From contig JAWMAR010000424.1 of the NCBI GenBank assembly GCA_036785375.1, positions 186,001 through 250,000 on the forward strand: a stretch of 64,000 bases of DNA. The letters run 5' to 3'. Below the pieces are notes generated by a model. It did no database searches. It was not told the origin of the DNA and worked only from the letters and a program-made list of their open reading frames with translations. Source of the stretch: Leucoraja ocellata (taxonomy: Eukaryota). The position numbers and the translations under genes were made by a program. Numbering within the stretch: the stretch's first letter is position 1; the number at the start of each line of letters is the position of its first letter. This document shows positions 22,225-61,754 of the stretch, in pieces.

Positions 22225-22273
22225 ATGAACATTCTGACTCTTTGCAGTGTGGTCTCATTTATTTCAGCATCAG
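22225..22273 (+). CDS. NCR3LG1: Signal-peptide exon, copy 2, of B7-H6-like gene
   Basis: Same 49-nt coding sequence and donor as 15575-15623. Confidence 0.68.
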
Positions 22274-34679: not shown

Positions 34680-35420
34680 TCCACCATCCCAGATACCTGT
34701 GGGTGGTGTACACAGTGAATTGCTGTCAGATATAAAAATGTGCACATTTTTCCTTATTATTGGTGGTTGGTAGAGCTTCACTCCACCTACTAAATAAATC
34801 TAAAATCACTACGCAATATTTATAACACTGGGCCCTTGGCATCTCAATAAAATCAATCTGTATGCATTCAAACGATCGTGATGGCATTGGCGTCACCCCT
34901 AAGGGTATCTTAAAATGGTTTGCCTGGATTATTTCATTGGCAAATTTTACATTCAGAGGCCTGCTTCAGTGCCTCTTATCAAATTTTCGGGTGCCACCAC
35001 ATTTCCTTTGTTATCCTATCATTCCCTCCTTACCAGCATGGGTAAGACGGGTAAAAATGTATCGTTATACACCAACTTGTCCAAGCGGGGTGTGCTGAAT
35101 CAATGGCACAGCCCTCTTGTTTCCATAGTTATTATTATATACAAGAGGCGTCCCTCTGTAATGTACATACCTCCCTCATGTTTGGCAGGACCGTTCTATT
35201 TGCTAGTATCTGTTTACCAGATGTCACCACGCATTTGGATGTACAGGCTGCTTGCTTGGATACACTATCAGCAACCCATTGCCTTTTGCTATAGGGTCCC
35301 CAGCACCAGTGTGTGCAGTACATTTAATAATGACCAGCTGTTCTGGTAGCATCAATGCCTTAAACAAATTACGCACAGAAAGGCATTCCCGTGCTCCCAA
35401 TCCTGGAGAGCTTTGTAAGG
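34680..35420 (-). pseudogene. ERV pol remnant (RNase H C-terminus and integrase), with stops, frameshifts and deletions
   Basis: Manual minus-strand translation: LPEQLVIIKCTAHTGAGDPIAKGN, HAGKEGM..WWHP..ECKICQ*NNPG, FECIQIDFIEMPRAQCYKYCVVILDLFSRWSEALP. Confidence 0.85.
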
Positions 35421-35744
35421 TCAGAACTTCAAGTTATAGGGATGTCACTGATGGAACTGTCCCAGGTAAAGATGCCATTGCTACTGGTAGGGCATAGGGA
35501 GGTGGACATCTCACAAGATTATCTAACTCCTCCTCATTTTCATTACCAAATAGGGTCGTCGTGCCAGACATGAAGTCTCCTCCAGAGGATTTACCAGTAC
35601 TGGGTTTATTTTTTACGAACCATCACCTGTTTCTCACCTCCTGTCTGTCTTTTAATTCTATTCTCTTGTTCCTCTGCCCACTGGCATTCTAGTTGCAATA
35701 ATTTCCATCCTTTCCTAGTGCTATCCTAGTTTCTTAACTCTATC

Positions 35745-36678
35745 AAGCAAAGTTACAAAATTGTGAGATTTAAAAAAAATCAAATCTGCAATTTATCCCA
35801 TCAGATAAAGCATAACAATAAGTTTAATTTGACACCTAATTCACTTTCATATCTCAAGTAATAAAAATATTATGGCCATTTTCATACTCGGAAATTAGCA
35901 TCTTGTTCCCTATTGATTTTCTATGGACATAACAAAAAACTGTGATCATGGACAGTCAAAAGCCCATAACCTTCTTAAAAATTAAGAGAACTGAATGAAA
36001 TTTTCAGTTATCATAGATTGAACCATTCTGACACAAATATAAAATAATCTTACTTGGATGACCTGAAATTAAAGCATATAATTAGTTAGTTACCCAATTG
36101 TAGCTAATTTCAAACTTCAATTACTAGATCTAAACATCTATCCAATTCTTAATAAATGACTAACATTTTTAAACAGCCTAAGTGTCCAAATAATATTCAC
36201 AAATAATTCACAATAAAACATGATTTTTAAATCTCATTTACATCAATTTATAGGCCAAATGGAAGGAATTTAGTGTTCAATTGCTGTAAATTAAAGTCTA
36301 TTTTAAATCGGCTTTCTAGTGGGTTCCTGTGAAGAAAAATACTGCGGGATATAAAAAGCCCAAAATGAGCTACTCGCAATAGAAAAATTTACAGGGTTCT
36401 TAAGAAGCCCCTTTTAATGTAAAAATAAAGTACATACCGGTACTTGTTTGCTTTATAAAACCCTGGGACTGCGAGAGGTCGCGGATCTAGAGAATGACCT
36501 CCAAACTACTACAACCACCATACAAGGCCATAAAAACCAATAACACCCTTTGCGACGGGGTCCCCCAGCGACTTTCCGTCAATGATTCACTAGGCTGAAC
36601 ATTTTTGACTGCAACAGCCCAGTAAAAATCGCGTTTTAAACCTGCCCCCTCTAAACAGCGCCAAAATCACGCACACGG
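35745..36678. mobile_element. Second copy of the ~1-kb DNA transposon, right end missing, inside the ERV
   Basis: Collinear with 467-1446. Similarity stops at GCACACGG, about 50 bp short of the right TIR. Confidence 0.8.
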
Positions 36679-37029
36679 CCTCGTCTTACATGCAGTATCC
36701 ATCCAACTTCGAACTCTACTCTCCTCATGCTTCTCCTCTGTTCCTGATTTCCATGTTTTAATTCCTTTCTTCCATTTCTTTCCTGTCTTCCTTTCCCATA
36801 TCAACACCTCTGCTTATTTAATTGTCTCAACATTCCATGTGCCCCCTACTGGCCAGGCTTCATCCCCCAACCGTTTGGTCAACTTGTAACTTAACATTCT
36901 AAATTTCTTATTATACTTAGGATTCAAATAACACATATATTGGACCGGTATCCAGAGCATTCCCCATAGATAGATAGAAAGAAAGAGAGAGAAAAAATAC
37001 TTCTTAATTCCGAATCGTTCCAAATATAT

Positions 37030-37635
37030 CAACCAGGCCGACCCACTAAATGAGACCCCAGTTTCTCAACTTGGCTGACTTTTTAATTCCGAATAGTTCC
37101 AAATATTCAACCAGGCCGACTCGCTACCCGAGACCCCAGTTTCTCAATTTGGCTGACTTTTTATTTAACTCTTTAATATACGACCCAAGTGTCTCAACGA
37201 AGCCGACTTGCTAACCAAGACCCCCGTTTCTCAACCTGGCAGACGTCTTAACTCTTAAAATAAGCCCCAGGTGTCTCAACGAAGCAGACCCGCGAACCGG
37301 GACCCCCGTTTCTCAACCTAGCAGACTTCTTAATTCTTTAATATACAACGCCACTTATTTCTCAATCCGACAACGCTTCGGATGTCTCAATAAGCCAGAC
37401 GCACACCTCAACCCCTGTATCTCAACCCGACAAATCACGGATATCTCAACAAGGCTGATGAGCCCTTAGTAGAGAGAGAGAAAGAAAACAAAGAGAGATA
37501 GACAGAGAGAGAAAAAGAGAAAGAGAAACCGCTCAAGTCCTTCTTAAAAATATACACAATTCCATCTTAAAAATACATACACAATTCCGTCTTAAAAATA
37601 CATACACAATTCCGTCTTAAAAATACATACACAAT
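37030..37635. repeat. Tandem repeats in the ERV 5' leader
   Basis: Repeated GACCCC(A/C)GTTTCTCAAC units (37030-37460) and three ACACAATTCC(G/A)TCTTAAAAATACAT units (37553-37635). Confidence 0.8.
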
Positions 37636-37866
37636 CCCTTCTTTAAAAAAAACCCACATAAAGCCCAACTGGTCTTACCTTTGTCTGTTGCTAAGAACCT
37701 CGGCAGGGAACCAATTCAATCTCTGATGAAGGATCACAGACGTTCCCGGGAGTTTCTAGGGAGTCGGTCTTACAAGGGGGCCGATAGAGCTCAGTTATCT
37801 CCCTTCCAATACCGGCAACCTCCGCAACCTCTTGCACAGTCAGCCGTTGATGTGGTCCCAGCGAGG

Positions 37867-37883
37867 CCTGCATAACTACGCCA
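37867..37883 (-). promoter_or_regulatory. ERV primer-binding site, tRNA-Ser-like (imperfect)
   Basis: TGGCGTAGTTATGCAGG one base from the 5' LTR, versus TGGCGTAGTCGGCAGG expected for vertebrate tRNA-Ser. Confidence 0.65.
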
Positions 37884-37884
37884 A

Positions 37885-38496
37885 TGAAAAAGCTACTTAT
37901 CTTAACTACTAAACCAGGTTCGCTTCTTAATAAACAGACACCACACAAACTGTTTGGTAGACCAGTTCAAAACTTTACTTAACATCGGCCGATGGAAGGG
38001 AGGGAGAACTCCAGTCAAGTGACCAACACAGACACTTGACTGTCCTCAGTCACCTTCCCTGAACAACAGAATTACATTGCTTTAAATAGGTTTTTTGTCC
38101 CCTTATCACATTCCACAGACATTAGTCATGGTCAGAAGTACTGGAAAAGGTTTCCACAGAATGCATCACATCCAACCTTTTTTTTACATGGTACAAGATA
38201 TACTAAAAACATTGTATATCTTCTTTGTCACTTGGTCCCTCATAAACATAGACCATCTGTTTACAAAGATGTGACTGGCTATTCCTCTTCTTCCTTTATT
38301 GCCTCCTCCCCATAAACATTGGTCATTTGATCTCTACTTCAAAGATATCTCTAGCTCCTTCACTTGGGAGACAATGTTATCTCACACACCCCGCAACCTG
38401 AGGAAAGCCTAATTTGACACTAAATATAAGGTGTAAGCTAGCCCAGAAACCAATTTAATATCTTCTTATATTTTTAACTAAAACTCGGCTTCATCA
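37885..38496 (-). repeat. ERV 5' LTR
   Basis: Adjacent to the PBS. 612 bp with TG..CA ends. Confidence 0.95.
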
Positions 38497-38949
38497 ATTT
38501 CATTCCAAAGAGGAAGATGGAGGATCATTTCATTCCAAAGAGGAAGAAAGATTCTAAGGGGAGTAAGAGGCGACCATGGCAGCAATTGAAGTTAGGGATA
38601 GAATAAAACTAAAGGAAAAGGTGTATAACATAGCAAAGAGTAGCGGGAAACCAGAGGATTGGGAAATATTCAAAGGACAACAGAAGGTAACAAAAAGGAC
38701 AATACGGGATTAAAAGATGAAGTGCGAAGGGAAGCTGGCCAAGAATATAAAGGAGAATAAAAGCTTCTTTATGTATGTTAAGAGAAAAATATTTAGTAGG
38801 TGTTTCTGTCCTCTAGTGATATAACTACCCAGAAAACACAACAGTGAATAGAACTGGTTCATTTGACTCTCCATTAATGAAGCTGGATCATTGTGTTTTA
38901 ATTCTTGTAATTTTTCATTTATTTTGTGTTTTTTAAAACAATTGTTACT

Positions 38950-39504
38950 TCACCAATTTTGAAATTTCAACTATCCAGGAGCAATAGGCAGGGATGCGCA
39001 TTAAAGCCCCTGCTATTTGCTCTTGTGATAGAGCCCCTAGCAGAAAGTATAAGAATGCATCCGAATATCCATGGTTATAATACCAAACACTCAAACAATA
39101 AAATTTCATTATATGCAGATGACGTATTATTATACATTACAAAATCGCAAATCAGCATACCAAATATATTAAGTTTAATAGAGGAATTTGGTTCCTTTTC
39201 AGGATATAGAATAAATTGGAATAAAAGCGAAATTATGACGATAAAACCTCAAGAGACGACACCTTTTAAAATTCCCCTTTAGAATTGCAACAGAAAGATT
39301 TAAATATTTGGGTATCCAAATTACAAGAAAATTTAAATCTTTATTTAATGCAAACTATATGCCTTTTCTAACTAAATTAAATGTGTTGGAAAAAACTCCC
39401 GATGTCTTTAATAGGCAGAATAAATGCTATAAAAATGATTTTTTGACCACAAATTTTGTATTTATTTCAATCAATACCAATATACCTTCCTAAAAAATTA
39501 TTTT
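38950..39504 (+). mobile_element. L1-clade LINE RT fragment (truncated duplicate of 47485-52693)
   Basis: RQGCALKPLLFALVIEPLA..ISLYADDVLLY..SGYRINWNKSE. Confidence 0.88.
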
Positions 39505-40351
39505 AAAAATGGTTCTGACTGTCATCCCTACCTGCGCCTCTCATAATTTGATATACTTCAATCAGGTTTTTCTACAACCTCTGGCATTCCAGAGAAAACA
39601 ATCCAAGTCTGTCCAAGCTCTCCCTGTAGCTAATGCCCTTGAATCCTTCCATTCTGTGAAATCTCCTCTGCACTCTCTCCAAACCTTCCAGACCCTTCCT
39701 GTAATGGGGTGAACAGAAGTGTGAAAACGCACACCTCCAGATTCATGTACAGTTTCTTCCCAGCTATTATCAGGCAGCAGAACCACCCTACCACAAGTGG
39801 AGAGTAGTCCTGAACTACTATCTACTTCATTCGTGACCTTTGGACTATCTTTAATCTGACTTTACTGGTTTTATTTTGCACTAGGGGTAATTCCCTTATC
39901 ATGCATCTGTACACTGTGAATGGTTTGATGTAATCATGTATTGTCTTTCCACTGACTGGTTAGCATGCAACCAAACTATTTTATGTACCTCTTTACATGT
40001 GACAATAAACTAAACTGACGTGAAACAGAACTGCCCACAACAGTCTAAATGCAGGTGAAACAAAGTCCCATGAAGCTGAATCATGACTTCCTGACTCTTA
40101 TATTCAAAGCCCCAACCAATGAATGCAAGCACACCATGTGCCTACTTTATCATATTAATGTCTTCAGATGCTAATGGTTCTAACATTCCTAACTCTGATG
40201 AAGAGACCCCAGCCTGAGGAAATGACCCTGTTCCATTCCCTGGCAATGTTTTGGACCTGCTTAGTGCTTCCAGTATTGTCTGCTTTTGTTTTCTATCTCC
40301 AGCACCTGCAGTCTCTTCCTCTAATATTTAAATGTACATTTTTTAATGCAG

Positions 40352-40663
40352 CTCGACCAAACGTTATATTGACACAGTCCATCACAACTGAGAAAGGTTC
40401 AGAAGTTTCTCTGACATGCAAAGCCAGTGGATTTTACCCTCGACCGATAAAGATCACCTGGGTGAAGATAACAGGAAGAAGAAATGTTTCCATGACTAAC
40501 TATACAACTCAAATCACTGCCAATGGTGATCGCACTTTCAATGCTGAGAGTGTACTGAAGATTCACCTGACATTGAAGGATAATGGTGATCAATACAGAT
40601 GCGTTGTGACACATCAAACATTACTGAATGGTCTCACAATAGAACTTTCTCTCATCGTGACAG
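40352..40663 (+). CDS. NCR3LG1: IgC1-domain exon, copy A, of B7-H6-like protein
   Basis: TTTTTTAATGCAG acceptor, G|GTGAGT donor, 312 nt, phase 1-1. LTCKASGFYPRPIKITW..YRCVVTHQTL C1-set motifs. Confidence 0.82.
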
Positions 40664-41480
40664 GTGAGTTGAACACAGTGCGAGAGTCTAGGACCAGAGG
40701 CTACAGCCTCAGAATCAAGGACGCACCTTTAGACAGATGTGGAGGAATTTCTTTAGTCAGAGGGCGGTGAATCTGTGGAATTCATTGCCACAGACGACTG
40801 TGGAGGCCAAGTCATTGGGCATTTTTAAGACAGATTGTTGGATTCTTGATTAGTACGGGTGTCGGGGTTATGGGGACAAGCTAGGAGATTGCGATTGGGT
40901 GGGAAAGATAGATCAGCCATAATTGAAAGGTGGAGTAGACTTGATGAATTAGTCTGAATTGCCTAATTCTGCTCCTATCATATGAATTTGAACTTATCTA
41001 AGCATTTGGCCCTTATCCCTCTAAACTTTTCCTATCCATGTACTGTACAAAAATCTTTTAAATGCTGTTATAGTACCAGCCCCAACTCTCTCCTCTGGCA
41101 GCTTGTTCCATTTACCCACCGCCCTCTGAATGTGACCGTTTCCCCTCAGCTTCCTATCTTTCCCCACTCACCTATGTCCCCTGGTTCTTGATTCCCCTTG
41201 GCTGGGGGGTAAAAGTCTCTGTGCATCCACCCCATCTATTCCTCTCATGATTCAATACACGTTTAATAATTAAATAATTAGAGGTGTCAGCCTTTTGTAA
41301 TGAGCGCTGATGTACATCATCCATGAATAAAGTGAGGGGTCAGATGTGAAGTGCATCAGGACCCTCAGCTCTGGAGATAACTGTTTCACTGATGGTGTCA
41401 GTGTGTGGCTCAGCGGCAAAATGGATTCAGGGCAATGAGCAGTGTTCCACAGTTGAATCACCACCGGTTCAATGCTTGTC

Positions 41481-44400
41481 CCGGGAACCGTTGGGGCGAG
41501 TGGAGGAGGGTCAGGGCTGTGAGTATTTAATTCAAGCGAGGGGCTTGCTTTCACAGAGGCCCGGGAATCGTTGGAGCGAGTGGAGGAGGGTCAGGGCTTT
41601 TACTGAAATCTGTAACGTTCCACACTCCATAGGGAGGGTTCTGGTGTAAGCCGCTGATTGGCGGAAGCAGACTAGAGGAAGCAGCTGATTGGGTGCAACC
41701 TCACGTTAGCATTTCTGCTTTCTGGTTAAAGGTACAGTGCTTTAGTAAAGGTACAGTGAGCCAAGGGTACAGTGCGCTAAAGGTACAGTGCTTTTTGTTT
41801 ATATAATTTAAGGTGCAGTTTAAAGGTCACGAGGGAGCAGCTGTTGTGAGTCAGATACCTGCTGATTTCTCCCAGCAGTTTCTATTGTATTATACTGGTA
41901 TCGGATCCAGGGTAAGGCGGGAGAATGACAGTCAGAGCAGTATACTGTTCTGGATGTCAGATGTGGGAGGTCATGGTGTCGGATGGCCCTCCAGACGTCC
42001 ACATCTGCACCAGGTGCAGAGAGATGGGGCTCCTAAGGGACCGTATTAGGATCCTGGAGCAGCAGCTCGATGACCTCTGTCTGGTCAGGGAGAGTGACGA
42101 GGTCATAGAGGGGAGTTATAGAGAGGTGGTCACTCCAAAACCACGGGAGAGAGACATGTGGGTCACACTAAGGAATGGCAAGGGGCAGAGGCAGGAACGA
42201 GTGAGTACTCCAATGTCGGTACACCTCGCAAATAAGTACTCCTGTTTGAGTACGGATGGGGGTGACAGCCTACCCGGGGGTAGTGACAGCGGACGGGCCT
42301 CCAGCACAGAGACCGGCCCTGTTGCTCCGAAAGGTAGGGACAAAAAGAGGGCAATAGTAATTGGGGACTCTATTGTTAGGGGGTCGGATAGGCGATTCTG
42401 TGGATGCAGTCGGGAGACCAGGATGGTGTTCTGCCTCCCTGGTGCCAAGGTCTCGGACGTGTCTCAACGCGTCCAAGATATTCAGAAATCAGAGGGAGAG
42501 GAGCCTGAGGTCGTGGTACATATAGGTACCAATGACATAGGTAAAAAAAAGGAAAGAGGTCCTGAAGGGAGGATTTAGGGAGTTGGGAGGAGAGTTAAGG
42601 AAAAGGGCCAAAAACGTAACAATCTCAGGATTACTGCCTGTGCCACGCGACAGTGAGAGTAGGAATGGAGCGAGGTGGAGGATAAATGCGTGGCTGAAAG
42701 ACTGGTGCAGAGGGCAGGGATTCAAGTTTCTGGATCATTGGGACTTCATTTGGGGAAGGTGGGACTTGTACAGAAAGGATGGGTTGCAATTGAACCCGAG
42801 GGGGACCAATATCTTAGCGGGGAAATTTGCAAAGGCTACTGGGGAGACTTTAAACTCGAATGGTTGGGGTGAGGACCTCAAATAGAGAAAGCTAGTAGAC
42901 AGAATGGGAGGCAGGAAGCAGAAAAGGGAAGCACTCGGACACAAGAGGAGAAAGAAGAAAAAGGAAATAAACAGAGAATAAGAGGCGGGGGGTTTCTTAA
43001 ATGTGCATATTTTAATGCTAGGAGCATTGTAAGAAAGGTGGATGAGCTTAGAGTCTGGATAGACACCTGGAAGTATGATGCTGTGGCGATCAGTGAAACG
43101 TGGTTGCAGGAGGGCTGTGATTGGAAACTAAATATTCCCGGATTTCGTTGCTTCAGGTGTGATTGAATTGGAGGGGCAAGAGGTGGAGGTGTTGCATTGC
43201 TAGTCAGGGAAGATATTACAGCAGTGCTTTGGCAGGATAGATTGGAGGGCTCATCTAGGGAGGCTATTTGGGTGGAACTGAGAAGTGGGAAAGGTGTAGC
43301 AACACTTATGGGGGTGTATTATAGACCGCCAAATGGGGATCGAGAATTGGAAGAGCAAATATGTAAGGAGATAGCAGATATTAGTAGTAAGCACAAGGTA
43401 GTGATTGTGGGAGATTTCAACTTTCCACACATAGACTGGGAAACACATTCTGTAAATGGGCTTGATGGTTGGAGTTTGTAAAATGTGTGCAGGATAGTTT
43501 TTTGCAACAATACATAGAGGTACCTACTAGAGGAGGGGCAGTGCTGGACCTCCTGTTAGGAAATGAGACGGGACAGGTGGCGGAGGTATGCGTTGGGGAG
43601 CACTTCGGGTCCAGTGATCACAATACCATTAGTTTCAATATAATTATGGAGGGTCAGAACTGGACCTAGGGTTGAGATTTTTGATTGGAGAAAGGCTAAC
43701 TTTGATTAGATGCGAAATGATTTAAAAGGAGTGAACGGACATTTTGTTTTATGGGAAGGATATAGAAGAGAAATGGACGACATTTAAAGGGGATATTTTA
43801 AGAGTACAGAATCTTTATGTTCCTGTTCGGTTGAAAGGAAACAGTAAAAATTGGAAAGAGCCCTGGTTTTCAAGGGAAATTGGACATCTTGTTCGGAAAA
43901 AGAGGGAGATCTACAATAATTATAGGCAGCATGAAGTAAATCAGGTGTTTGAGGAGTATAACGAATGTAAAAAGAATCTCAAGAAAGAAATTAGAAAAGC
44001 TGAAAGAAGATATGAGGTTGCTTTGGCAAGTAAGGTGAAAGTAAATCCAAAGGGTTGCTACAGCTATATTAATAGCAAAAGGATAACGAGGGATTAAATT
44101 GGTCCATTGGAGAGACAGAGTGGAGAGCTATCTGCAGAGGCAAAAGAGATGGGGGAGATATTGAACAATTTAATTTCTTCGGTATTCACCAAGGAGAAGG
44201 ATATTGAATTATGTGTGGTAAGGGAAACTAGTAGAGTAGCTATGGATACTATGAGTTTCAAAGTAAAAGAAGTACTGACATTTTTGAAAAATATAAAAGT
44301 GGATAAGTCTCCAGGTCCTGGCAGGATATTCCCATGAACATTAAGGGAAGTTAGTGTAGAAATAGCAGGGGCTATGACAGAAATATTTCAAATGTCATTA

Positions 44401-45880
44401 GAAAAGGGAATAGTCCCCGAGGATTGGCGTACTGCGCATGTTGTTCCATTGTTTAAAAAGGGTTCTAAGAGTAAACCTAGCAGTTATAGACCTGTTAGTT
44501 TGACTTCAGTGGTGGGCAAATGAATGGAAAAGATACTTAGAGATAATATATATAAGCATCTGGATAAACAGGGTCTGATTAGGAACAGTCAACATGGATT
44601 TGTGCCTGGAAGGTCATGTTTGACTAATCTTCTTGAATTTTTTGATGAGGTTACTAGGGAAATTGACGAGGATAAAGCAGTGGATGTTGTCTAAATGGAC
44701 TTTAGTAAGGCCTTTGACAAGGTTCCTTATGGAAGGTTGGTTAAGAAGGTTCAACTGTTGGGTATAAATGCAGGAGTAGCAAGATGGATTCAACAGTGGC
44801 TGAATGGGAGATGCCAGAAGGTAATGGTGGATGGCTGTTTGTCGGGTTGGAGGCAGGTGACTAGTGGGGTGCCTCAGGGATCTGTGTTGGGTCCTTTGTT
44901 GTTTGTCATGTACATCAATGATCTGGATGAAGGGGTGGTAAATTGGATTAGTAAGTATGCAGATGATACCAAGATAGGGGGATGTTGTGGATAATGAAGA
45001 GAATTTCCAAAGTCTACAGAGTGATTTAGGCCATTTGGAAGAATGGGCTAAAAGATGGCAGATGGAGTTTAATGCTGATAAATGTGAGGTGCTACACCTT
45101 CGCAGGACAAATCAAAATAGGACGTACATGGTAAATGGTAGGGAATTGAAGAATGCAGTTGAACAGAGGGATCTGGGAATAACCGTGCATAGTTCCTTGA
45201 AGGTGGAATCTCATATAGACAGGGTGGTAAAGAAAGCTTTTGGTATGCTAGCCTTTATAAATCAGAGCATTGAGTATAGAAGCTGGGATGTAATGTTAAA
45301 ATTGTACAAGGCATTGGTGAGACCAAATCTGGAGTATGGTGTACAATTTTGGTCGCCCAATTATAGGAAGGATGTCAACAAAATAGAGAGAGTACAGAGG
45401 GGATTTACTAGAATGTTGCCTGGGTTTCAACAACGAAGTTACAGAGAAAGGTTGAATAAGTTAGGTCTTTATTCTCTGGAGCGCAGAAGGTTAAGGGGGG
45501 ACTTGATAGAATTCTTTAAAATGATGAGAGGGATAGACAGAGTTGACGTGGACAAGCTTTTCCCTTTGAGAATAGGGAAGATTCAAACAAGTGGACATGA
45601 CTTCAGAATTAAGGGACAGAACTTTAGGGGTAACATGAGGGGGAACTTCTTTCCTCAGAGAGTGGTAGCGGTGTGGAATGAGCTTCCAGTGGAAGTGGTG
45701 GAGGCAGGTTTGTTGGTATAATTTAAAAATAAATTGGATAGGCATATGGATGAGAAGGGAATGGAGGGTTATGGTATGAGTGCAGGCAGGTGGGACTAAG
45801 GGAAAATAATTGTTCGGCACGGAATTGTAGGGCCGAGATGGCGTGTCTCCGTGCTGTAATTGTTATATGGTTATATGGTC
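41481..45880 (+). mobile_element. Full-length CR1 LINE with 5' UTR repeats, ORF1 and ORF2; multiple stops and frameshifts
   Basis: 5' UTR with two GGGAA(C/T)CGTTGG(G/A)GCGAGTGGAGGAGGGTCAGGGCT and three GGTACAGTG repeats. ORF1 from 41925, EN-RT motifs, TATGGTTA tail. Empty site at ~56790. Confidence 0.93.
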
Positions 45881-45999
45881 ATCTGGTTATGTCTAACAAG
45901 TCATGTTCTAGAAAATTAATCTAGATATATACAACTTTGCAGATTGCCATATGTCTGGAAACTTGTACATAAAGGACCACTGATCATTCCCAGAGTCTG

Positions 46000-46300
46000 G
46001 GGCAGCACAGAATTGCATCAAGTAGAGTTGCTGCCTCATGGCTCCAGAGACCGGGGTTCGATCCTGACCACGGGTGCCGTCTGTGGGGAGTTTGCCCGTG
46101 CTCCCTGTAACCACGTGGGTTTCCTCCAGGTGCTCCAGTTTCCACCAGCATCACAAGGACGTGCAGGATTGTAGGTTAATTGGCCCTCTGTAAATTGCCC
46201 CTAGTTTGTAGGGAGAAGATGAGAAAGTGGGATAACATAGAACTAGTGTGAACAGGTGATCGATGGTCAGCATGGTCTTGGTGGGCTTTAGGGTCTGATC
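46000..46300 (+). mobile_element. HE1-like tRNA-derived SINE (duplicate at ~56890-57190)
   Basis: GTAGAGTTGCTGCCTCA..GGTTCGATCC B-box head followed by the conserved body. Confidence 0.7.
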
Positions 46301-47119
46301 AATCAATTCAATCTCTCAATTCAATTCAATACAATTCATCAAATCAAGGATTATTAACACATTCCTGGCCATTTAAGTCAATCTATTGCTTCTTTTATTC
46401 AAAGACCAGAAATCAAATTACTCTTTAATTATAATCTGCATCATGGTGATGATATGTATAATCCTTGGAATCTTAAATGCTGCAGCTGTTTCACACCCGG
46501 GAAATAAACACAATATGTACCAGTTAAGTACAGAACCTAGAACAGTACAGCACAGGAGCAGGCCCTTCAGCCCACAATGTTGAACATGATGCCAAGATAA
46601 ACTCATCTTCTCTGCCTGTGTGTGGTCCATGTCCCTCCATTCCCTGCATATCCATGTGTCTATTTATAAACCTCCCAAACGCCACTATCGTTCGTATCTG
46701 CCTCCACCACACATAGCAGTGCAGTTCTCGGCATCCACTCTCTGTTTAAAAACATGCCCTGTACAACTTTACTCTTCTCACCTTAAAACTATGCTCTCCA
46801 GATTCTCACTAATACACCCTGGGTAAATATTCTGACTATACCTTATCTATTTCTCTCACAATTGTATATACTTCCATCAGTTCTCCCCTCCACTTCCGTC
46901 ATTCCAAAGAAAACAATCCAAATCTGTCCAACCTCTCAGTGTCGTTGATACCCCTAATCCAAGCAAGTGCTCTGATAAACCTCTTCTGCACCCTTTCCAA
47001 AGCCTCCACATTCTTTATGTTATGGGGTGACCAGAACTACACCAATTCCATGAAGGATTAAACCAATCTGATAAGTAGAATAAGTTAGTGATACATTCTG
47101 TGGAATATTGTACATAAAT

Positions 47120-47258
47120 CAAAGTGCTGGAGGAACTGAACGGGTCAGGCAGCATCTGTGGAAGGAATGGAGAGGTGATGTTCCCTCCACAGATGCTGCC
47201 TGACCCACTGAGTTCCTCCAGCACTTTGTGTTTTGTTCAAGATTCCAGCATCTGCAGA
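47120..47258. repeat. Penelope-derived palindrome (duplicate at ~58020-58157)
   Basis: ~43-bp arms CAAAGTGCTGGAGGAACT..GCAGCATCTGTGGA and TCCACAGATGCTGC..AGTTCCTCCAGCACTTTG. Confidence 0.8.
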
Positions 47259-48938
47259 TTCTAAAGAAACCTCTTACTCTACAGGGCAATACTAAAAGCT
47301 TCTTTAGGTATGTTAAGAGAAAAATATTTAGTAGGTATGTCTGTCCTCTAGTAATATAACTGCACAAAAAACACAACAGTGAATAGAACTGGTTCATTTG
47401 ACTCTCCATTAATGAAGTTGGATCATTGTGTTTTAATTCTTGTAATTTTTCGTTTAATTCGTGTTTTTTAAACAATTATTACTTCACCAATTTTGAAATT
47501 TCTACTATCCAGGGGCAATAGGCAGGGATGCGCATTATCACCCCTGCTATTTGCTCTTGTGATAGAGCCCCTAGCAGAAAGTATAAGAATGCATCCGAAT
47601 ATCCATGGTTATAATACCAAACACTCAAACAATAAAATTTCATTATATGCAGATGGCGTATTATTATACATTACAAAATCGCAAATCAGCATACCAAATA
47701 TATTAAATTTAATAGAGGAATTTGGTTCCTTTTCAGGATATAGAATAAATTGGAATAAAAGCGAAATTATGACGATAAAACCTCAAGAGACGACACCTTT
47801 TAAAATTCCCCTTTAGAATTGCAACAGAAACATTTAAATATTTGGGTATCCAAATTACTAGAAAATTTAAATCTTTATTTAATGCAAACTATATGCCTTT
47901 ACTAACTAAATTAAATGCGTTGGAAAAAACTCCTGATGTCTTTAATAGGCAGAATAAATGCTATAAAAATGATTTTTTGACCACAAATTTTGTATTTATT
48001 TCAATCAATACCAATATACCTTCCTAAAAAATTCTTTAAAAAACTTGACTGATATTATAAACTTCATATGGGACTATAAATCACATAGAATTCAAAGAAA
48101 ACATCTGAGTAAACCTAAAAAATTTGGCGGACTGACACTCCCCAATTTTTTGTATTACTATTGGGCAGTGAACATCAAAAATGCAATTCATTGGTTGGAT
48201 AAGTCTGCTCAACAAGTAGATTGGATAATAATGCAGAAAGAGGATTGCTCGCCTTTTAATATAGGAGCGATCCTTCTCTCCCCGATAAAACGGGAATAAT
48301 ACAATATACAAGAAGAATCCAATTATTCATAGTACAATACGAATTTGGAAACAAATAAAATTAACTCTCAAATTAAGAAATCTATCACTTCTTTCTCCAA
48401 TAGTTAATAACCCGTCACTTAAACCATCTATTATTGATAAAACATTTACCCATTGGGAAAGAACAGGAATTAAAACGCTTGGAGACATGTATGAAATGGG
48501 AAAACTTTTATCATTTCAACAACTACAACTAAAATACAACCTGAAAAGTAATCAATATTTCAAATACCTACAAATGCGAGATTACTTGAAGAAACACACA
48601 CAAGAATATCAAACCTTAACCTCAGATCTATTAGATGAAGGAATGAACAGAAAAGCGGAATCAAGTAATTTAATATCATATTTGCATAACATCATTTTAA
48701 ATATAGAAATACCATCGTCAGAGGCAATTAGAATGGACTGGGGACAAGAATTATCTATAAAAATTCCGAATGACAGATGGGAAAAATACTTGCTATATGT
48801 ACATAAATGCTTGATTAATGTAAGACATAACTTAATTCAATTTAAAATTTTAAATAGATTATATTACTCGAAAACCAAACTGAATAAAACATTTTTCCAA
48901 ATGTTTCTCCCATCTGTGATAAATGCTTATCTCAAAAT

Positions 48939-51831
48939 ATGTATGAGAATAAGAGAATAAGAGAGGGTGGGTTTCTTAAATGTGTATATTTTAATGCTAG
49001 GAGCATTGTACGAAAGGTGGATGAGCTTAGAGTCTGGATTGACACCTGGAAGTATGATGTTGTGGCGATCAGTGAAACATGGTTGCAGGAGGGCTTTGAT
49101 TTGAAACTAAATATTCCAGGATTTTGTTGCTTCAGGTGTGATAGAATTGGAGGGGCAAGAGGTGGAGGTGTTGCATTGCTTATCAGGGAAGATATTGCAG
49201 CAGTGCTTTGGCAGGATAGATTAGAGGGCTCGTCTAGGGGGGCTATTTGGGTGGAACTGAGAAATGGGAAAGGGTAGCAACACTTATAGGGGTGTATTAT
49301 AGACCACCAAATGGGGAGCGAGAATTGGAAGAGCAAATATGTAAGGAGATTGCAGATATTAGTAGTAAGCACAAGGTAGTGATTGTGGCAGATTTCAATT
49401 TTCCACACATAGACTGGGAAACACATTCTGTAAATGGGCTGGATGGGTTGGAGTTTGTAAAATGTGTGCAGGATAGTTTTTTGCAGCAATACATAGAAGT
49501 ACCTACTAGAGAAGGGGCGGTGCTGGACCTCCTGTTAGGAAATGAGACGGGTCAGGTGGCAGAGGTATGCTTTGGGGAACAGTTCGGGACCAGTGATCAC
49601 AATACCATTAGTTTCAATATAATTATGGAGAGGGGCAGAACAGGACCTAGGGTTGAGATTTTTGATTGGAGAAAGGCTAACTTTGAGGAGATGCGAAAGG
49701 ATTTAAAAGAAGTAAATTGGGACATTTTGTTTTATGGGAAAGATGTGGAAGAGAAATGGAGTACATTTAAAGGTGAAATTTTAAGAGTGCAGAAACTTTA
49801 TGTCCCTGTTCGGTTGAAAGGAAATCGTAAAAATTGTAAAGAGCCATGGCTTTCAAGGGAAATTGGACACTTGGTTCGGAAAAAGAGGGAGATCTACAAT
49901 AATTATAGGCAGAATGGATTAAATGAGGTGCTTGAGGAGTATAAAGAATGTAAAAAGAATCTTAAGAAAGAAATTAGAAAAGCTAAAAGAAGATATGAGG
50001 TTGCTTTATAAACGAAATAAAATTTCGTTCAGACTTCGGTCTNNNNNNNNNNNNNNNNNNNNNNNNNNNNNNNNNNNNNNNNNNNNNNNNNNNNNNNNNN
50101 NNNNNNNNNNNNNNNNNNNNNNNNNNNNNNNNNNNNNNNNNNNNNNNNNNNNNNNNNNNNNNNNNNNNNNNNNNNNNNNNNNNNNNNNNNNNNNNNNNNN
50201 NNNNNNNNAAATCCGAAGGGTTTCTACCGCTATATTAATAGCAAAAGGATAACGAGGGATAAAATTGGTCCATTAGAGAGTCAGAGTGGACAACTATCTG
50301 CAGAGCCAAAAGAGATGGGGGAGATATTGAACAGTTTCTTTTCTTCGGTATTCACCAAGGAGATTCACCGGGAGATTGGCGTACTGCGCATGTTGTTCCA
50401 TTGTTTAAAAAGGGGTCTAAGAGTAAACCTAGCAATTATAGACCTGTTAGTTTGACGTCAGTGGTGGGCAAATTAATGGAAAGAATACTTAGAGATAATA
50501 TATATAAGCATCTGGATAAACAGGGTCTGATTAGGAACAGTCAACATGGATTTGTGCCTGGAAGGTCATGTTTGACTAATCTTCTTGAATTTTTTGAAGA
50601 GGTTACTCGGGAAATTGATGAGGGTAAAGCAGTGGATGTTGCATATATAGACTTCAGTAAGGCCTTTGACAAGGTTCCTCATGGAAGGTTGGTTAAGAAG
50701 GTTCAATGGTTGGGTATTAATGGTGGAGTAGCAAGATGGATTCAACAGTGGCTGAATGAGAGATGCCAGAGAGTAATGGTGGATGGTTGTTTGTCAGGTT
50801 GGAGGCCAGTGACTAGTGGGGTGCCACAGGGATCTGTGTTGGGTCCACTGTTGTTTGTCATGTACATCAATGATCTGGATGATGGTGTGGTAAATTGGAT
50901 TAGTAAATATGCAGATGATACTAAGATAGGAGGGGTTGTGGATAATGAAGTAGATTTTCAAAGTCTACAGAGAGATTTATGCCAGTTGGAAGAGTGGACT
51001 GAAAGATGGCAGATGGAGTTTAATGCTGATAAGTGTGAGGTGCTACATCTTGGCAGGACAAATCAAAATAGGACGTACATGGTAAATGGTAGGGAATTGA
51101 AGAATGTAGGTGAACAGAGGGATCTGGGAATAACTGTGCACAGTTCCCTGAAAGTGGAATCTCATGTAGATAGGGTGGTAAAGAAAGCTTTTGGTGTGCT
51201 GGCCTTTATAAATTAGAGCATTGAGTATAGAAGTTGGGATGTAATGTTAAGATTGTACAAGGCATTGGTGAGGCCAATTCTGGAGTATGGTGTACAATTT
51301 TGGTTGCCTAATTATAGGAAGGATGTCAACAAAATAGAGAGAGTACAGAGGAGATTTACTAGAATGTTGCCTGGGTTTCAGCAACTAAGTTACAGAGAAA
51401 GGTTGAACAAGTTAGGGCTTTATTCTTTGGAGCGCAGAAGGTTAAGGGGGGACTTGATAGAGGTTTTTTAAATGATGAGAGGGATAGACAGAGTTGACGT
51501 TGAAAAGCTTTTCCCACTGAGAGTAGGGAAGATTCAAACAAGGGGACATGACTTGAGAATTAAGGGACTGAAGTTTAGGGGTAACATGAGGGGGAACTTC
51601 TTTACTCAGTGAGTGGTGGCTGTGTGGAATGAGCTTCCAGTGAAGGTGGTGGAGGCAGGTTCGTTTTTATCATTTAAAAATAAATTGGATAGTTATATGG
51701 ACGGGAAGGGAATGGAAGGTTATGGTCTGAGCGCAGGTATATGGGACTGGGGGAAAATATGTGTTCGGCACGGACTAGAAGGGTCGAGATGGCCTGTTTC
51801 CGTGCTGTAATTGTTATATGGTTATATGGTT
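48939..51831 (+). mobile_element. CR1 LINE, 5'-truncated, spanning an assembly gap
   Basis: EN and RT ORFs closely match 16210-20306. AAAAT duplicated at 48934-48938 and 51832-51836. Confidence 0.9.
50043..50208. other. Assembly gap (N run)
   Basis: 166 N. Confidence 1.
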
Positions 51832-52759
51832 AAAATGCTACTATAGTACACTCTTTTGTCTCTTGCATAAAACTTCATACATTTTGGAATGAAATCTTTG
51901 GAATTTTTACAAAATTATTTAAAATAAAATTGAACCCCAATACAGAACTGATTATCTTTGGATCAATGGAAGTGTAAGCTGACTTTGTTTCAAAAATGTC
52001 TCCTTAATTGTGGCTTAATAACGGCAAAAAAATTATACTTAAATTCTGGAAAAATGCACCCACACCAACGCTCAAAATGTGGATTTCAAACATGTCGGAA
52101 ATGTTACATCTTGAAGATATGAGATCAAAAATGCAATTCATGGGTTGGACAAGTCTGCTCAACAAGTAGACTGGATAATAATGCAGAAAGAGGATTGCTC
52201 TCCTTTTAAAATTCCCCTTTAGATTTGCAACAGAAAAATTAATCCTATCAGGCAAATCAGACCAATTCTTAAAGATTTGGTCTCCCTTTATCAACTTATT
52301 ACAAGCACATGGTGCAACGCAAACTTAGAAATTAACTGTTTCAGAACTGGGTGAGGGGTGGGTAAAGATACGAAGTAGGTATATCCCTTTCAATTTCTCT
52401 TTTTTCTTCTCTTTTTTTCTTCTCTATTCCTTTTCTTTCTTATTTCACCTTCTTGTTTTCTTTCGGGCTATAAGGCCTTATGAGCTCTTTTTTTCCCCTA
52501 TTTTTTCACGGATTAACAATATTACTACTTTATATAATATTCCCTTCCTCTCTATTTCTTGCTTTTCTTACTCTTCTTTTTTACTATTAAATTTAAAATA
52601 AGAAGTTGTACATGAAATGTAACATGTTATTCATGTCTTATATTATTGTACACTACTTCTAATAAAAATATTTTAAAACAAATTAAAAAAAGAATGCTCC
52701 CCTCTCTGCAACTTAACTGAACAGCGCAGCAACAAGCTATTCAGCCCACAATGTCTACT

Positions 52760-53225
52760 CAAGTGTTCAAGTTCAAGTGAGTGTTCAAGTGAGTTTATTG
52801 TCATGTGTCCCTGTATAGGACAATGAAATTCTTGCTTTGCTTAAGCACACAGAAAATTGTAGGCATTTACTACAAAACAGATAAATGTGTCCATATACCA
52901 TGATATAAATATATACATACATGAGTAAATAAACTGATAAAGTGCTAATAGCAGAAAGTGGTTATTAATAATCAGAGTTTTGTCCGAGCCAGGTTTAATA
53001 GCCTGATGGCTGTGGGGAAGTAGCTATTCCTGAACCTGGTTGTTGCAGTCTTCAGGCTCCTGTACCTTCTACCTGAAGGTAGCAGGGAGATGAGTGTGTG
53101 GCCAGGATGGTGTGGGTCTTTGATGATACTGCCAGACTTTTTGAGGGAGCGACTGCGATAAATCCCCTCGATGGAAGGAAGGTCAGAGCCGATGATGGAC
53201 TGGGCAGTGTTTACTACTTTTTGTA
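52760..53225 (-). mobile_element. Rex1/Babar LINE 3' end; related pieces at ~54290-54630, ~39715-40015 and ~55030-55325
   Basis: QKVVNTAQSIIGSDLPSIE..IIKDPHHPGH..LLPSGRRYRS..RFRNSYFP and (TTGAAC)n tail. Confidence 0.8.
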
Positions 53226-53426
53226 CTCTGAACATAATGCCAAGACCATCTCTTATCTACCTGTACTTATGTGTAGCCCATATCCCTCCATTCCCTGCAT
53301 TTCCATGTGTTTATCAGTGCAGTAGATTTAGTTTATCGTCATATCAAGGTGTGCATTTTGTTGCTTTTGTTGTGTGCTAACCAGTCAGTGGAAAGACAAT
53401 TACAATTGAGCCATCTATAGTGTACA

Positions 53427-53683
53427 ACTGGGCGAAGCAGGATCACCACGGGAGTGCGTGCAGCTGGGAAGGGGCGCGCCACAGAAACATAGAGTAAACG
53501 CGCCGCGCGTGGGGCTCGGGCCACTTTGGCTTCTACTGCGACGCCCACCCAGCTGTGTCCCATATGTGAACGAGCCTTCCAGGCCCAGATCGGGTTCACC
53601 AGTCACCTGGGGACCCACTAACAAAAACACTGAAGTCATCGTCTTCTTCGACTATGCAGGATGAACAACAAACAACAACAACA
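53427..53683 (+). mobile_element. RTE-clade LINE 3' end
   Basis: CPICERAFQAQIGFTSHLGTH* C2H2-like RTE terminus, short 3' UTR and (CAA)n tail. Confidence 0.75.
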
Positions 53684-53784
53684 GATACATGATCAGAGAA
53701 TAACGTTCAGTGGAAGAGAAGGCCAGTGAAGTCCAATCAAAGCTAGTCCATGGCTCACCAAAGAGGTAGATGGTATTTCAGCAC

Positions 53785-54282
53785 TTTGAGGAAGGACATT
53801 CTTGCTATTGAAGGAGTGCAGCGTAGGTTTACGAGGTTAATTCCCGGGATGGCGGGACTGTCATATGCTGAGAGAATGGAGCAGGTGGGCTTGTACACTC
53901 TGGAGTTTAGAATGATGAGAGGATATCTCATTGAAACATATAAGATTGTTAAGGGCTTGGACACACTAGAGGCAGGAAACATGTTCCCGATGTTGGGGGA
54001 GTCCAAAACCAGGGGCCACAGTTTAAAAATAAGGAGTAAGCCATTTAGAATGGAGACGAGGAATCACTTTTTCTCACAGAGAGTGGTGAGTCTCTGGATG
54101 CTTTCAAGAGAGAGCTAGATAGGGCTCTTAAAAATAGCGGAGTCAAGGGATATGTGGAGAAGGCAGGAACAGGGTACTGATTGGGGATGATCAGCCATGA
54201 TCACATTGAATGGCGGTGCTAGCTTGAAGGGTCAAATGGCCTACTCCTGCACCTGTTGTCTTTTGTCTATTGTCTATTGTTA
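53785..54282 (+). mobile_element. CR1 3' fragment with (CTATTGT)n tail
   Basis: [28 protein letters not shown]. Confidence 0.85.
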
Positions 54283-55661
54283 TCTAGTTGGTGATAGGAT
54301 GGTTCCGTTGCCTAATAACAGCTGGGAAGAAACTGTCCCTGAATCTGGAGGTGTGCATTTTCACACTTCTATATCCTTTGTCTGATGGGAGAGGGGAGAA
54401 GAGGGAGTGGCCAGGATGCGACTCATCCTTGATTATGTTGCTGGCCTTGCCGAGGCAGCATGAGGTATAAATGGAGTCAATGGAAGGGAGGTTGGTTTGT
54501 GTGATGGTCTGAGTTGTGTCCACAATTCACTGCAATATCGTGTGGTCTTGGTTGCAGCTGTTCCCAAACAAGGCGATAAAATGCTTCCCACAGTGTATCT
54601 GTAGAATTTGGTGGGAGTTGTAGGGGATGTTTTGGATGTGCCTATCAAAAGGTCTCCTAAATGTCACTATTGTATCTGCCTCCACCACCACCCCTGTTAT
54701 AGTGCATTCCAGGCATCCACCACCCTCTGTGTAAAAAAACTTGCCCCACACATCTCCTTTAAACTTTGCTCCTCTAACCTTAAAGCAGCAGCTTCTAGTA
54801 TTTGATATTTTCATCCTGGGAAAATGGTTCTGACTGTCATCCCTACCTGCGCCTCTCATAATTTGATATACTTCAATCAGGTCTTTCTACAACCTCTGGC
54901 ATTCCAGAGAAAACAATCCAAGTCTGTCCAAGCTCTCCCTGTAGCTAATGCCCTCGAATCCATCCATTCTGGGAAATCTCCTCTGCACTCTCTCCAAACC
55001 TTCCAGACCCTTTCTGTAATGGGGTGAACAGAAGTGTGAAAACGCACACCTCCAGATTCATGGACAGTTTCTTCCCAGCTATTATCAGGCAGCAGAACCA
55101 CCCTACCACAAGTGGAGAGTAGTCCTGAACTACTATCTACTTCATTCGTGACCTTTGGACTATCTTTAATCTGACTTTACTGGCTTTATTTTGCACTAGG
55201 CGTAATTATCATGCATCTGTACACTGTGAATGGTTTGATGTAATCATGTATTGTCTTTCCACTGACTGGTTAGCATGCAACCAAAGTATTTTATGTACCT
55301 CTTTACATGTGACAATAAACTAAACTGACGTGAAACAGAACTGCCCACAACAGTCTAAATGCAGGTGAAACAAAGTCCCATGAAACTGAATCATGACTTC
55401 CTGACTCTTATATTCAAAGCCCCAACCAATGAATGCAAGCACACCATGTGCCTACTTTATCATATTAATGTCTTCAGATGCTAATGGTTCTAACATTCCT
55501 AACTCCGATGAAGAGACCCCAGCCTGAGGAAATGACCCTGTTCCATTCCCTGGCAATGTTTTGGACCTGCTTAGTGCTTCCAGTATTGTCTGCTTTTGTT
55601 TTCTATCTCCAGCACCTGCAGTCTCTTCCTTTAATATTTAAATGTACATTTTTTAATGCAG

Positions 55662-55973
55662 CTCGACCAAACGTTATATTGACACAGTCCATCACAACTG
55701 AGAAAGGTTCAGAAGTTTCTCTGACATGCAAAGCCAGTGGATTTTACCCTCGACCGATAAAGATCACCTGGGTGAAGATAACAGGAAGAAGAAATGTTTC
55801 CATGACTAACTATACAACTCAAATCACTGCCAATGGTGATCGCACTTTCAATGCTGAGAGTGAACTGAAGATTCACCCGACATTGAAGGATAATGGTGAT
55901 CAATACAGATGCGTTGTGACACATCAAACATTACCGAATGGTCTCACAATAGAACCTTCTCTCATCGTGCCAG
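55662..55973 (+). CDS. NCR3LG1: IgC1-domain exon, copy B, of B7-H6-like protein
   Basis: Same splice sites and 312-nt length as copy A. Five substitutions. Confidence 0.85.
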
Positions 55974-58239
55974 GTGAGTTGAACACAGTGCGAGAGTCTA
56001 GGACCAGAGGCTACAGCCTCAGAATCAAGGACGCACCTTTAGACAGATGTGGAGGAATTTCTTTAGTCAGAGGGCGGTGAATCTTTGGAATTCATTGCCA
56101 CAGACGGCTGTGGAGGCCAAGTCATTGGACATTTTTAAGGCAGATTGTTGGATTCTTGATTAGTACGGGTGTCGGGGTTATGGGGACAAGCTAGGAGATT
56201 GCGATTGGGTGGGAAAGATAGATCAGCCATAATTGAAAGGTGGAGTAGACTTGATGAATTAGTCTGAATTGCCTAATTCTGCTCCTATCATATGAATTTG
56301 AACTTATCTAAGCATTTGGCCCTTATCCCTCTAAACTTTTCTTATCCATGTACTATACAAAAATATTTTAAATGCTGTTATAGTACCAGCCCTAACTCCC
56401 TCCTCTGGCAGCTTGTTCCATTTACCCACCGCCCTCTGAATGTGACCGTTTCCCCTCAGCTTCCTATCTTTCCCCACTCACCTATGTCCCCTGGTTCTTG
56501 ATTCCCCTTGGCTGGGGGGTAAAAGTCTCTGTGCATCCACCCCATCTATTCCTCTCATGATTCAATACACATTTAATAATTAAATAATTAGAGGTGTTAG
56601 CCTTTTGTAATGAGCGCTGATGTACATCATCCATGAATAAAGTGAGGGGTCAGATGTGAAGTGCATCAGGACCCTCAGCTCTGGAGATAACTGTTTCACT
56701 GATGGAGTCAGTGTGTGGCTCAGCGGCAAAATGGATTCAGGGCAATGAGCAGTGTTCCACAGTTGAATCACCACCGGTTCAATGTTTGTCTGGTTATGTC
56801 TAACAAGTCAGGTTCTAGAAAATTAATCTAGATATATACAACTTTGCAGATTGCCATATATCTAGGACCACTGATCATTCCCAGAGTCTGGGGCAGCACA
56901 GAATTGCATCAAGTAGAGTTGCTGCCTCATGGCTCCAGAGACCGAGGTTCGATCCTGACCACGGGTGCCGTCTGTGTGGAGTTTGCCCGTGCTCCCTGTG
57001 ACCACGTGGGTTTCCTCCGGGTGCTCCAGTTTCCACCAGCATCACAAGGACGTGCAGGATTGTAGATTAATTGGCCCTCTGTAAATTGCCCCTAGTTTAT
57101 CGGGAGAAGATGAGAAAGTGGGATAACATAGAACTAGTGTGAACAGGTGATCGATGGTCAGCATGGTCTTGGTGGGCTTTAGGGTCTGATCAATCAATTC
57201 AATCTCTCAATTCAATTCAATACAATTCATCAAATCAAGGATTATTAACACATTCCTGGCCATTTAAGTCAATCTATTGCTTCTTTTATTCAAAGACCAG
57301 AAATCAAATTACTCTTTAATTATAATCTGCATCATGGTGATGATATGTACAATCCTTGGAATCTTAAATGCTGCAGCTGTTTCACACCCGGGAAATAAAC
57401 ACAATATGTACCAGTTAAGTACAGAACCTAGAACAGTACAGCACAGGAGCAGGCCCTTTGGCCCACAATGTTGAACATGATGCCAAGATAAACTCATCTT
57501 CTCTGCCTGTGTGTGGTCCATGTCCCTCCATTCCCTGCATATCCATGTGTCTATTTATAAACCTCCCAAACGCCACTATCGTTTGTATCTGCCTCCACCA
57601 CACATAGCAGTGCGTTCTCGGCATCCACTCTCTGTTTAAAAACATGCCCTGTACATCTTGTTTAAACTTTACTCTTCTCACCTTAAAACTATGCTGTCCA
57701 GATTCTCACTAATACACCCTGGGAAAAAATTCTGACTGCACCTTATCTATTTCCCTCACAATTGTATATACTTCCATCAGTTCTCCCCTCCACTTCCGTC
57801 ATTCCAAAGAAAACAATCCAAATCTATCCAACCTCTCAGTGTAGCTGATCCCCCTAATCCAAGCAAGCGCTCTGATAAACCTCTTCTGCACCCTTTCCAA
57901 AGCCTCCACATTATTTCTGTTATGGGGTGACCAGAACTACACCAATTCCATGAGGGATTAAACCAATCTGATAAGTAGAATAAGTTAGTGATACATTCTG
58001 TGGAATATTGTACATAAATCAAAGCGCTGAAGGAACTGAACGGGTCAGGCAGCATCTGTGGAAGGAATGGAGAGGTGATGTTCCCTCCACAGATGCTGCC
58101 TGACCCACTGAGTCCTCCAGCACTTTGTGTTTTGTTCAAGATTCCAACATCTGCAGATTCTAGTGTCTCTGATGAATGTTGTAAATGGCCTAGTATATTT
58201 ATTATTCACTTTTTCATAGATCTATGCCTGTTTTAACAG

Positions 58240-58341
58240 AACGTGGAAAAACTGGACTGATTATTGGAGGCATCTGTGGCATCGGCATATTTCTCTGTGT
58301 TGTGTGGATAGCATTTTATATCTGGAAGAAGAAATTTAAAG
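58240..58341 (+). CDS. NCR3LG1: Transmembrane exon of B7-H6-like protein
   Basis: TTTTAACAG acceptor, G|GTAAAC donor, 102 nt, phase 1-1. (E)RGKTGLIIGGICGIGIFLCVVWIAFYIWKKKFK: hydrophobic span plus basic stop-transfer. Confidence 0.85.
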
Positions 58342-58577: not shown

Positions 58578-58655
58578 GACAGGTAAATACAACGGACGTT
58601 GAAGACCCAAACCGTACACCACTTATCGCCAAGACGGGCTCACAAACTGCACGAG
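58578..58655 (+). CDS. NCR3LG1: Cytoplasmic exon of B7-H6-like protein
   Basis: TGTTGTTCAG acceptor, G|GTAATT donor, 78 nt, phase 1-1. (G)QVNTTDVEDPNRTPLIAKTGSQTAR. Confidence 0.7.
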
Positions 58656-58823
58656 GTAATTGATTATGGTGATTAATTATATCGAATACAAGATTCCTAT
58701 TCTTCCCACGACACACACAATTAGATGAACTTTTAAACCAAGTTTAGAAACATTAGCACAAAACCACGGGTGCTGTCTGTATGGAGTTTGCACGTTCTCT
58801 CTGTGACTGTGCGGGTTTTCTCC

Positions 58824-61666: not shown

Positions 61667-61754
61667 GCAAACGCCGTTCGCAAACGCCGTTGGGGAAACA
61701 GATGTCACAATGCCCAATGCTCAAAGGCATTGTTGCCATACAGAGAAGGTTCAG

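Follow-up and report, generated by a model that had tools for sequence, protein, structure and literature searches.

The ectodomain of human B7-H6 (NCR3LG1) consists of an IgV and an IgC domain, and NKp30 is bound through the IgV domain, as described in parts of PMC6514059. Lengthening of a B7-family ectodomain by intragenic tandem exon duplication is known from the 4Ig form of B7-H3 (CD276; parts of PMC3172298), in which a V-C pair has been doubled and which is common to many mammals. A V-C1-C1 ectodomain is found in SIRP-alpha, which carries immunoreceptor tyrosine-based inhibitory motifs (ITIMs) and whose C1 exons are alternatively spliced, a short isoform lacking both of them (parts of PMC12324903). 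Here we describe a stretch of 64,000 nucleotides (nt) from the skate Leucoraja ocellata (GenBank assembly GCA_036785375.1, contig JAWMAR010000424.1, positions 186,001 to 250,000 of the forward strand; hereafter the window), which carries a B7-H6-like gene. Its leader, V, C1, transmembrane (TM) and tail exons follow the layout of B7-H6/NCR3LG1, from which it differs by a second C1 exon (Table 1). In contrast to 4Ig B7-H3, C1 alone has been doubled at this locus, the two copies are only about 2% diverged, and the lengthened form is a predicted one. Our tentative preference is for a real and young duplication of the C1 exon, which would allow a V-C1-C1 ligand to be made and whose upstream copy (copy A, carrying exon C1A) appears to be unconstrained.

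That two intact, in-frame C1 exons share one V and one TM exon had been proposed in a first-pass annotation of the window and is borne out by tblastn, reading frames and splice ends: the V and the TM exon were each detected once and the C1 exon twice, and no additional V, C1 or TM exons were found by tblastn within the window. Each C1 exon is 312 nt long, free of stop codons, of phase 1-1 and bounded by AG and GT, and the two exons differ at 5 nt. Self-BLAST of the window placed them in a tandem unit whose copies align in three collinear blocks (38758-39509/47293-48043, 39506-41480/54821-56790 and 45869-47263/56776-58162) with 26 substitutions in 751, 30 in 1966 and 30 in 1362 aligned bases, respectively, corresponding to an overall divergence of 2.1%. 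A distance of 77 nt separates the end of copy B from the TM exon, and the junction between the copies is contiguous and free of N, both as the first-pass annotation had it. The private CR1-type long interspersed element (LINE) of copy A and the 6781 nt that copy A lacks relative to copy B (48044-54824) were also recovered; the CR1, described as full-length, is 4403 nt long and broken by stops and frameshifts. Three further features had escaped the earlier inspection, namely a doubled leader exon, the contribution of a CR1 in copy B to the 6.8-kb difference between the copies (about 2.9 kb), and a gap of N at 50043-50208. This gap separates the junction from C1B and lies inside the CR1 of copy B, which splits an L1-like reading frame; since the halves of the L1-like frame stand on either side of the CR1 that holds the gap, the scaffold join is supported.

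Several traits of the junction point to its origin. The 8 nt with which copy A closes are found again at 38549, and the 29-nt junction insert contains the reverse complement of 38561-38570 (10 nt); the microhomology and the template match thus both lie some 200 nt ahead of the start of copy A, which is the other breakpoint. Matches of equal quality were obtained for 39 of 4887 random 8-mers and for 207 of 2818 random 29-mers. The local template matches lend modest support to an origin by template switching, and from the microhomology and the short templated insert we infer that either a replication template switch or end-joining may have made the junction. Because the unit start (the first block) is 3.5% diverged compared to 1.5% in the block that contains C1 (P=0.002), two different alleles might have been joined in this event. 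At its end the unit carries a high-copy palindrome (47101-47247 and 58001-58146) just upstream of the TM acceptor, for which hairpins of -98.0 and -82.5 kcal/mol are predicted, and the two copies of this palindrome could pair around C1B.

Searches with the V and the C1 exon both retrieved the same Leucoraja erinacea protein, XP_055505900.1 (293 amino acids (aa), V-C1-TM), which shares 99% identity with C1B and 92% with V and aligns exon by exon with the leader, V, C1, TM and tail exons of the window. This protein is annotated as CD276 antigen-like, and the nearest other proteins are NCR3LG1-like proteins of a stingray and of Mobula. Compared with solved structures, XP_055505900.1 matched human B7-H6 with 97.3 bits (one V-C unit) and SIRP-alpha with 54.6 bits, whereas CD276 reached 56 bits per V-C unit, its two units summing to 111.9 bits, a higher score over the whole chain. 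With a family profile, which contains named NCR3LG1-like rows and hence leans toward B7-H6, the scores were 190.8 bits for B7-H6, 144.6 bits for CD276 (two units) and 69.2 bits for SIRP-alpha. B7-H6 was also the top match in a fold search with a structure model of XP_055505900.1 (predicted local distance difference test score 80.4), with a Z score of 21.4, a root-mean-square deviation of 2.0 and 203 aligned residues, compared to a Z score of 18.5 for the runner-up; SIRP-alpha was not among the best 50 fold matches listed, which excludes nothing. In a midpoint-rooted tree of 22 rows, from which SIRP and CD276 rows had been left out, XP_055505900.1 joins the NCR3LG1-like proteins of Hemitrygon and Mobula with a support of 99/99, and 20 of the 22 rows fall into a single clade, outside which two V-C-C proteins stand; several chondrichthyan paralogue groups are present in the tree. 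B7-H6 is therefore the closest described system by sequence (per V-C unit), profile, tree and fold.

The domain organization is in agreement with this assignment. The type I membrane layout is matched by a distal IgV and a proximal IgC domain (Pfam) together with leader, TM and tail exons as in XP_055505900.1. No ITIM was found in the tail exon of the window, in the tail of XP_055505900.1, which has no tyrosine, or in any of the 12 relatives checked. A charged residue in the TM segment is a trait of the SIRP beta type, and the TM span of the skate gene contains none. Judged by its sequence, the gene is a B7-H6 (NCR3LG1)-like ligand and not a SIRP; membership in the SIRP family was rejected on the lower scores of SIRP-alpha in the comparison with solved structures and in the profile search, the missing ITIM and the uncharged TM span. 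Of the SIRP-like character proposed earlier, only the predicted domain count stands, which is the same in SIRP-alpha and in the long skate form; the sequence match to SIRP-alpha is weak, and the tail exon found in the skate gene has neither an ITIM nor a tyrosine. As the two skate C1 exons are recent copies of 98% identity, the likeness to SIRP-alpha would be convergent. With the tails of five relatives as queries, no tail exons besides the one at 58578-58663 were detected in 58342-64000, up to the end of the window. Tails of 380-1250 aa occur in several shark and ray relatives, and the gene may have additional tail exons beyond the window limits.

To place the predicted V-C1-C1 form among its relatives, 153 proteins (the best 150 of 3038 matches and three others) were considered, and a family cut-off of at least 75 bits for both domains was passed by 72 V-C units in 71 proteins. 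In none of the 153 proteins does a second C domain follow one of these 72 family units. The set includes lower-scoring V-C-C proteins, two of which were placed in the tree and fall outside the B7-H6 clade. Variation in domain number does occur among database gene models of the B7-H6 family: Amblyraja radiata XP_032894416.1 and Fukomys KFO18674.1 are V-C-V-C, the frog Dendropsophus XP_069823847.1 is V-V-C, and the wallaby XP_072475728.1 is V-C-V. These models, one of them from another skate, have extra Ig domains as does the locus described here, but none is V-C1-C1. In XP_032894416.1, the V-C-V-C array precedes the TM span and more C-like domains follow it. Neither this skate gene nor a B7-H6 of V-C1-C1 type turned up in the literature searched, which is weak evidence of absence, as few subscription papers were covered.

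Both C1 exons have the donor CAG/GTGAGT, and their acceptors differ by one base near the branch region. The intron between C1A and C1B is 14998 nt long and the phases are symmetric, so that either choice of exon keeps the frame. With strong splice sites in both exons, a V-C1-C1 form is likely to be possible. Moreover, an intron of 15 kb imposes no steric exclusion, and together with the preserved frame and the equal sites this means that nothing in the sequence forces a choice of one exon out of two. Inclusion of both exons would give a V-C1A-C1B-TM protein of 397 aa, that is, 104 aa or one Ig domain more in the ectodomain, as the reading frames indicate and as had been anticipated in the first-pass annotation. 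Default splicing would thus be expected to yield the longer V-C1A-C1B-TM protein, accompanied by some skipping to the ancestral V-C1B-TM form. The V domain, which is the binding domain in human B7-H6, would remain unchanged, and the product would act as a longer ligand of an NKp30-like receptor rather than a signalling receptor of the SIRP type. Another AG precedes the in-frame TM acceptor by 20 nt (58220-58239); splicing at this AG would change the frame, and the TM span would be lost.

All five differences between the C1 exons are nonsynonymous (A/B: V/E67, L/P72, L/P91, L/P98 and T/P103). At four of the five sites XP_055505900.1 carries the residue of copy B, which identifies copy A as the derived copy. 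Pro72, which was lost in copy A, is present in 70 of the 72 family C1 domains and lies at a strand end in the model. At positions 98 and 103 the family more often has the residues of copy A than the prolines of copy B (7 vs 1 and 17 vs 4 of 72, respectively); copy A is nearer to the family at these two sites, and its decay is thus likewise unproven. Two of the exon changes are CCG to CTG, a change typical of CpG decay. The exon has diverged at the rate of the flanking introns (5/312 vs 25/1654 differences, P=0.80), and a ratio of five nonsynonymous to zero synonymous changes has a probability of P=0.24 under neutrality. Positive selection on copy A was considered and rejected, because the 5:0 ratio is indistinguishable from drift. 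Copy A is therefore likely to be drifting rather than specialised. The earlier proposal of alternative C1 isoforms is accordingly not supported as far as distinct functions are concerned, given an exon that diverged like an intron and a copy A that lost a near-invariant proline. In the V exon, 9 of 110 residues differ from L. erinacea, compared to 1 of 103 in C1B and none in leader and tail (V vs C1B, P=0.019). This rapid divergence gives a hint that the binding domain may be under diversifying selection.

If the duplication is real but C1A is a silent or mostly skipped pseudo-exon, the protein remains V-C1B-TM; we consider this somewhat unlikely. The four derived changes of copy A including Pro72Leu, the lack of detectable purifying selection, the absence of a second C domain after all 72 family units and the large insertions in the neighbouring introns fit a silent exon. 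On the other hand, the frame of C1A is still open, its two cysteines and its tryptophan are retained, its donor is perfect, its branch-point-like motif is, by eye, slightly better than that of copy B, and its residues 98 and 103 are the commoner ones in the family. At the other extreme, the use of C1A and C1B might be regulated and selected, either mutually exclusively or as distinct isoforms, or the gene might serve as a SIRP-like receptor. It is true that every exon difference alters an amino acid and that a layout resembling the docker-selector model for mutually exclusive exons (described in parts of PMC6071210 and PMC9013439) is present, with 53327-54370 being complementary to both 39715-40014 and 55030-55324. 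However, the 5:0 ratio is compatible with neutrality, and of 95 control pairs from the window, 79 gave inverted matches of at least 104 bits, for which reason the docker-selector structure was dropped as evidence of exclusive splicing. Such a layout would in any case merely loop out C1A and leave the double form possible, and a SIRP-like role is at odds with the absence of ITIMs from the tail exon found and from all 12 relatives. We therefore regard selected isoforms or a SIRP-like role as very improbable.

A further reading is that divergent alleles of a gene with a single C1 exon, each encoding V-C1-TM, could have been written in tandem by the assembly. The first-pass annotation had taken the private CR1 and the deletion in copy A as an argument against collapsed haplotypes; this argument fails, as divergent alleles would be expected to differ likewise. 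Contigs from four of 22 listed sequencing runs (X2, X3, X8 and X11) were aligned to 46858-47727. In X2, three versions were distinguished by subtraction at the low-copy sites 47362-47367, with depths of 39.8 (letters of the copy A start), 29.0 (letters of the copy B start) and 11.4 (neither), whereas X3 and X8 showed one version each. The contig depth in X2 was 74.2 at the unit start and 77.1 at the unit end, or 2.9 and 3.0 times the reference depth, for which the median over 12 contigs selected by hand from other loci was taken; such depth cannot be read as a copy number. Relative depths elsewhere were 0.9 (start) and 1.9 (end) in X3, 0.95 in X8 (start only) and 1.5 in X11 (end only); X8 has a hole at the unit end and X11 at the unit start, neither of which proves anything. 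Three versions at about threefold depth in X2 are a weak hint of real multi-copy DNA. Alleles written in tandem are also hard to reconcile with a gap-free junction whose novel insert matches local templates, and with the fact that V, the most divergent exon, is single; in addition, a divergence of 2.1% and a decayed private CR1 would seem high for alleles.

Several observations weigh against a real duplication or fail to support it. Among the matches listed, no contig bridges 47263/47293; there were 184353 further pieces beyond those listed, and both sides consist of high-copy repeats (bins 47119-47350), the edges of which explain the depth of 24347 in the junction bin of X2, so that the contigs speak neither for nor against the junction. 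Paralogous genes elsewhere could account for the extra versions (as the end depths of X3 and X11 may indicate), and the letters of the window at 47054, 47337, 47418, 47457 and 47478 were found in no run covering them. The N gap separates the junction from C1B. In both tandem duplications of the window it is the upstream copy that harbours a private CR1, and the repetition of this pattern at the leader exon is a possible product of haplotype mis-assembly. The difference in divergence between V and C1B fits divergent alleles or a polymorphic locus, and the annotated L. erinacea protein has a single C1. Taken together, we consider the duplication probably real and an assembly artefact unlikely.

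Under the favoured reading of a young duplication, the long form, if made, would have an architecture absent from the 72 family V-C units examined and would be a ligand whose length should matter, providing a cheap test of ligand-size effects in cartilaginous fish. For a mouse NKG2D ligand, elongation led to less killing by natural killer (NK) cells with binding unchanged (parts of PMC2909396), a mammalian precedent for the first-pass suggestion that an added Ig domain could alter the geometry of the synapse. B7-H3 already provides a case of domain gain through exon duplication, and extra domains occur in B7-H6 gene models; the skate duplication is young and confined to its lineage, with copy A giving no indication of constraint, which makes the finding a mild rather than a great surprise. 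Going further, skates might carry a copy-number-variable C1 array, with individuals showing V-C1, V-C1-C1 or longer forms, that is, one binding head at different heights. This is quite improbable; if true, it would offer a natural length series for the NK-ligand synapse and a snapshot of a SIRP-like V-C1-C1 architecture arising from a V-C1 gene.

Table 1. Exons, duplicated unit and major repeats of the B7-H6-like locus (positions in the window)
Feature	Position	Strand	Remarks
Leader (signal peptide) exon, upstream copy	15575..15623	+	encodes residues 1-16 of XP_055505900.1; GT donor
Leader exon, downstream copy	22225..22273	+	identical to the upstream copy (49 nt)
IgV exon, only copy in the window	30698..31030	+	Pfam V-set 42.1 bits; 101/110 aa identical to XP_055505900.1
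LTR-bounded element in the V-C1A intron	32196..38496	.	612-nt direct terminal repeats with 1 difference
Copy A of the duplicated unit	38758..47263	+	8506 nt
Deletion point in copy A	39505..39510	+	6781 nt of copy B missing; both ends share a short A-run
C1 exon A	40352..40663	+	intact, phase 1-1; Val67, Leu72, Leu91, Leu98, Thr103; Pfam C1-set 53.4 bits
CR1-type LINE, private to copy A	41481..45883	+	4403 nt; stops and frameshifts
Junction insert, copy A end to copy B start	47264..47292	+	29 nt, N-free
Copy B of the duplicated unit	47293..58162	+	10870 nt including N gap
CR1-type LINE within L1-like element, copy B	48948..51832	+	RVT_1 and endonuclease matches; contains gap 50043-50208
C1 exon B	55662..55973	+	intact, phase 1-1; ancestral-like; 102/103 aa identical to XP_055505900.1; Pfam C1-set 56.1 bits
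TM exon, only copy	58240..58341	+	uncharged span
Cytoplasmic exon	58578..58663	+	tyrosine-free; GT donor after 58655, or stop by read-through as in the L. erinacea model

We take the private element of copy A to be of CR1 type because of its tail and its similarity to reverse transcriptases (RT). The long terminal repeat (LTR)-bounded element in the intron between V and C1A ends 261 nt ahead of copy A, and its longest stop-to-stop frame is 148 aa; as the terminal repeats differ at only one of 612 nt, it must have been inserted very recently. The second tandem duplication (14981-21606/21613-24140), which doubles the leader exon, has copies that are 2.2-2.6% apart, and a minus-strand CR1 (about 16205-20300) with an open RT frame of 771 aa is private to the upstream copy. 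Upstream of it, at 10772-12930, are RT and tyrosine-recombinase-like frames (RVT_1, and a weak Phage_integrase match below the cut-off) of an element that is presumably of DIRS type. The intron between leader and V contains a minisatellite with some 63 copies of a 21-nt unit and an array of related 28-nt units (25105-26419 and 30131-30603), which flank an LTR-retrotransposon-like fragment with an Integrase_H2C2 match (28638-29186).

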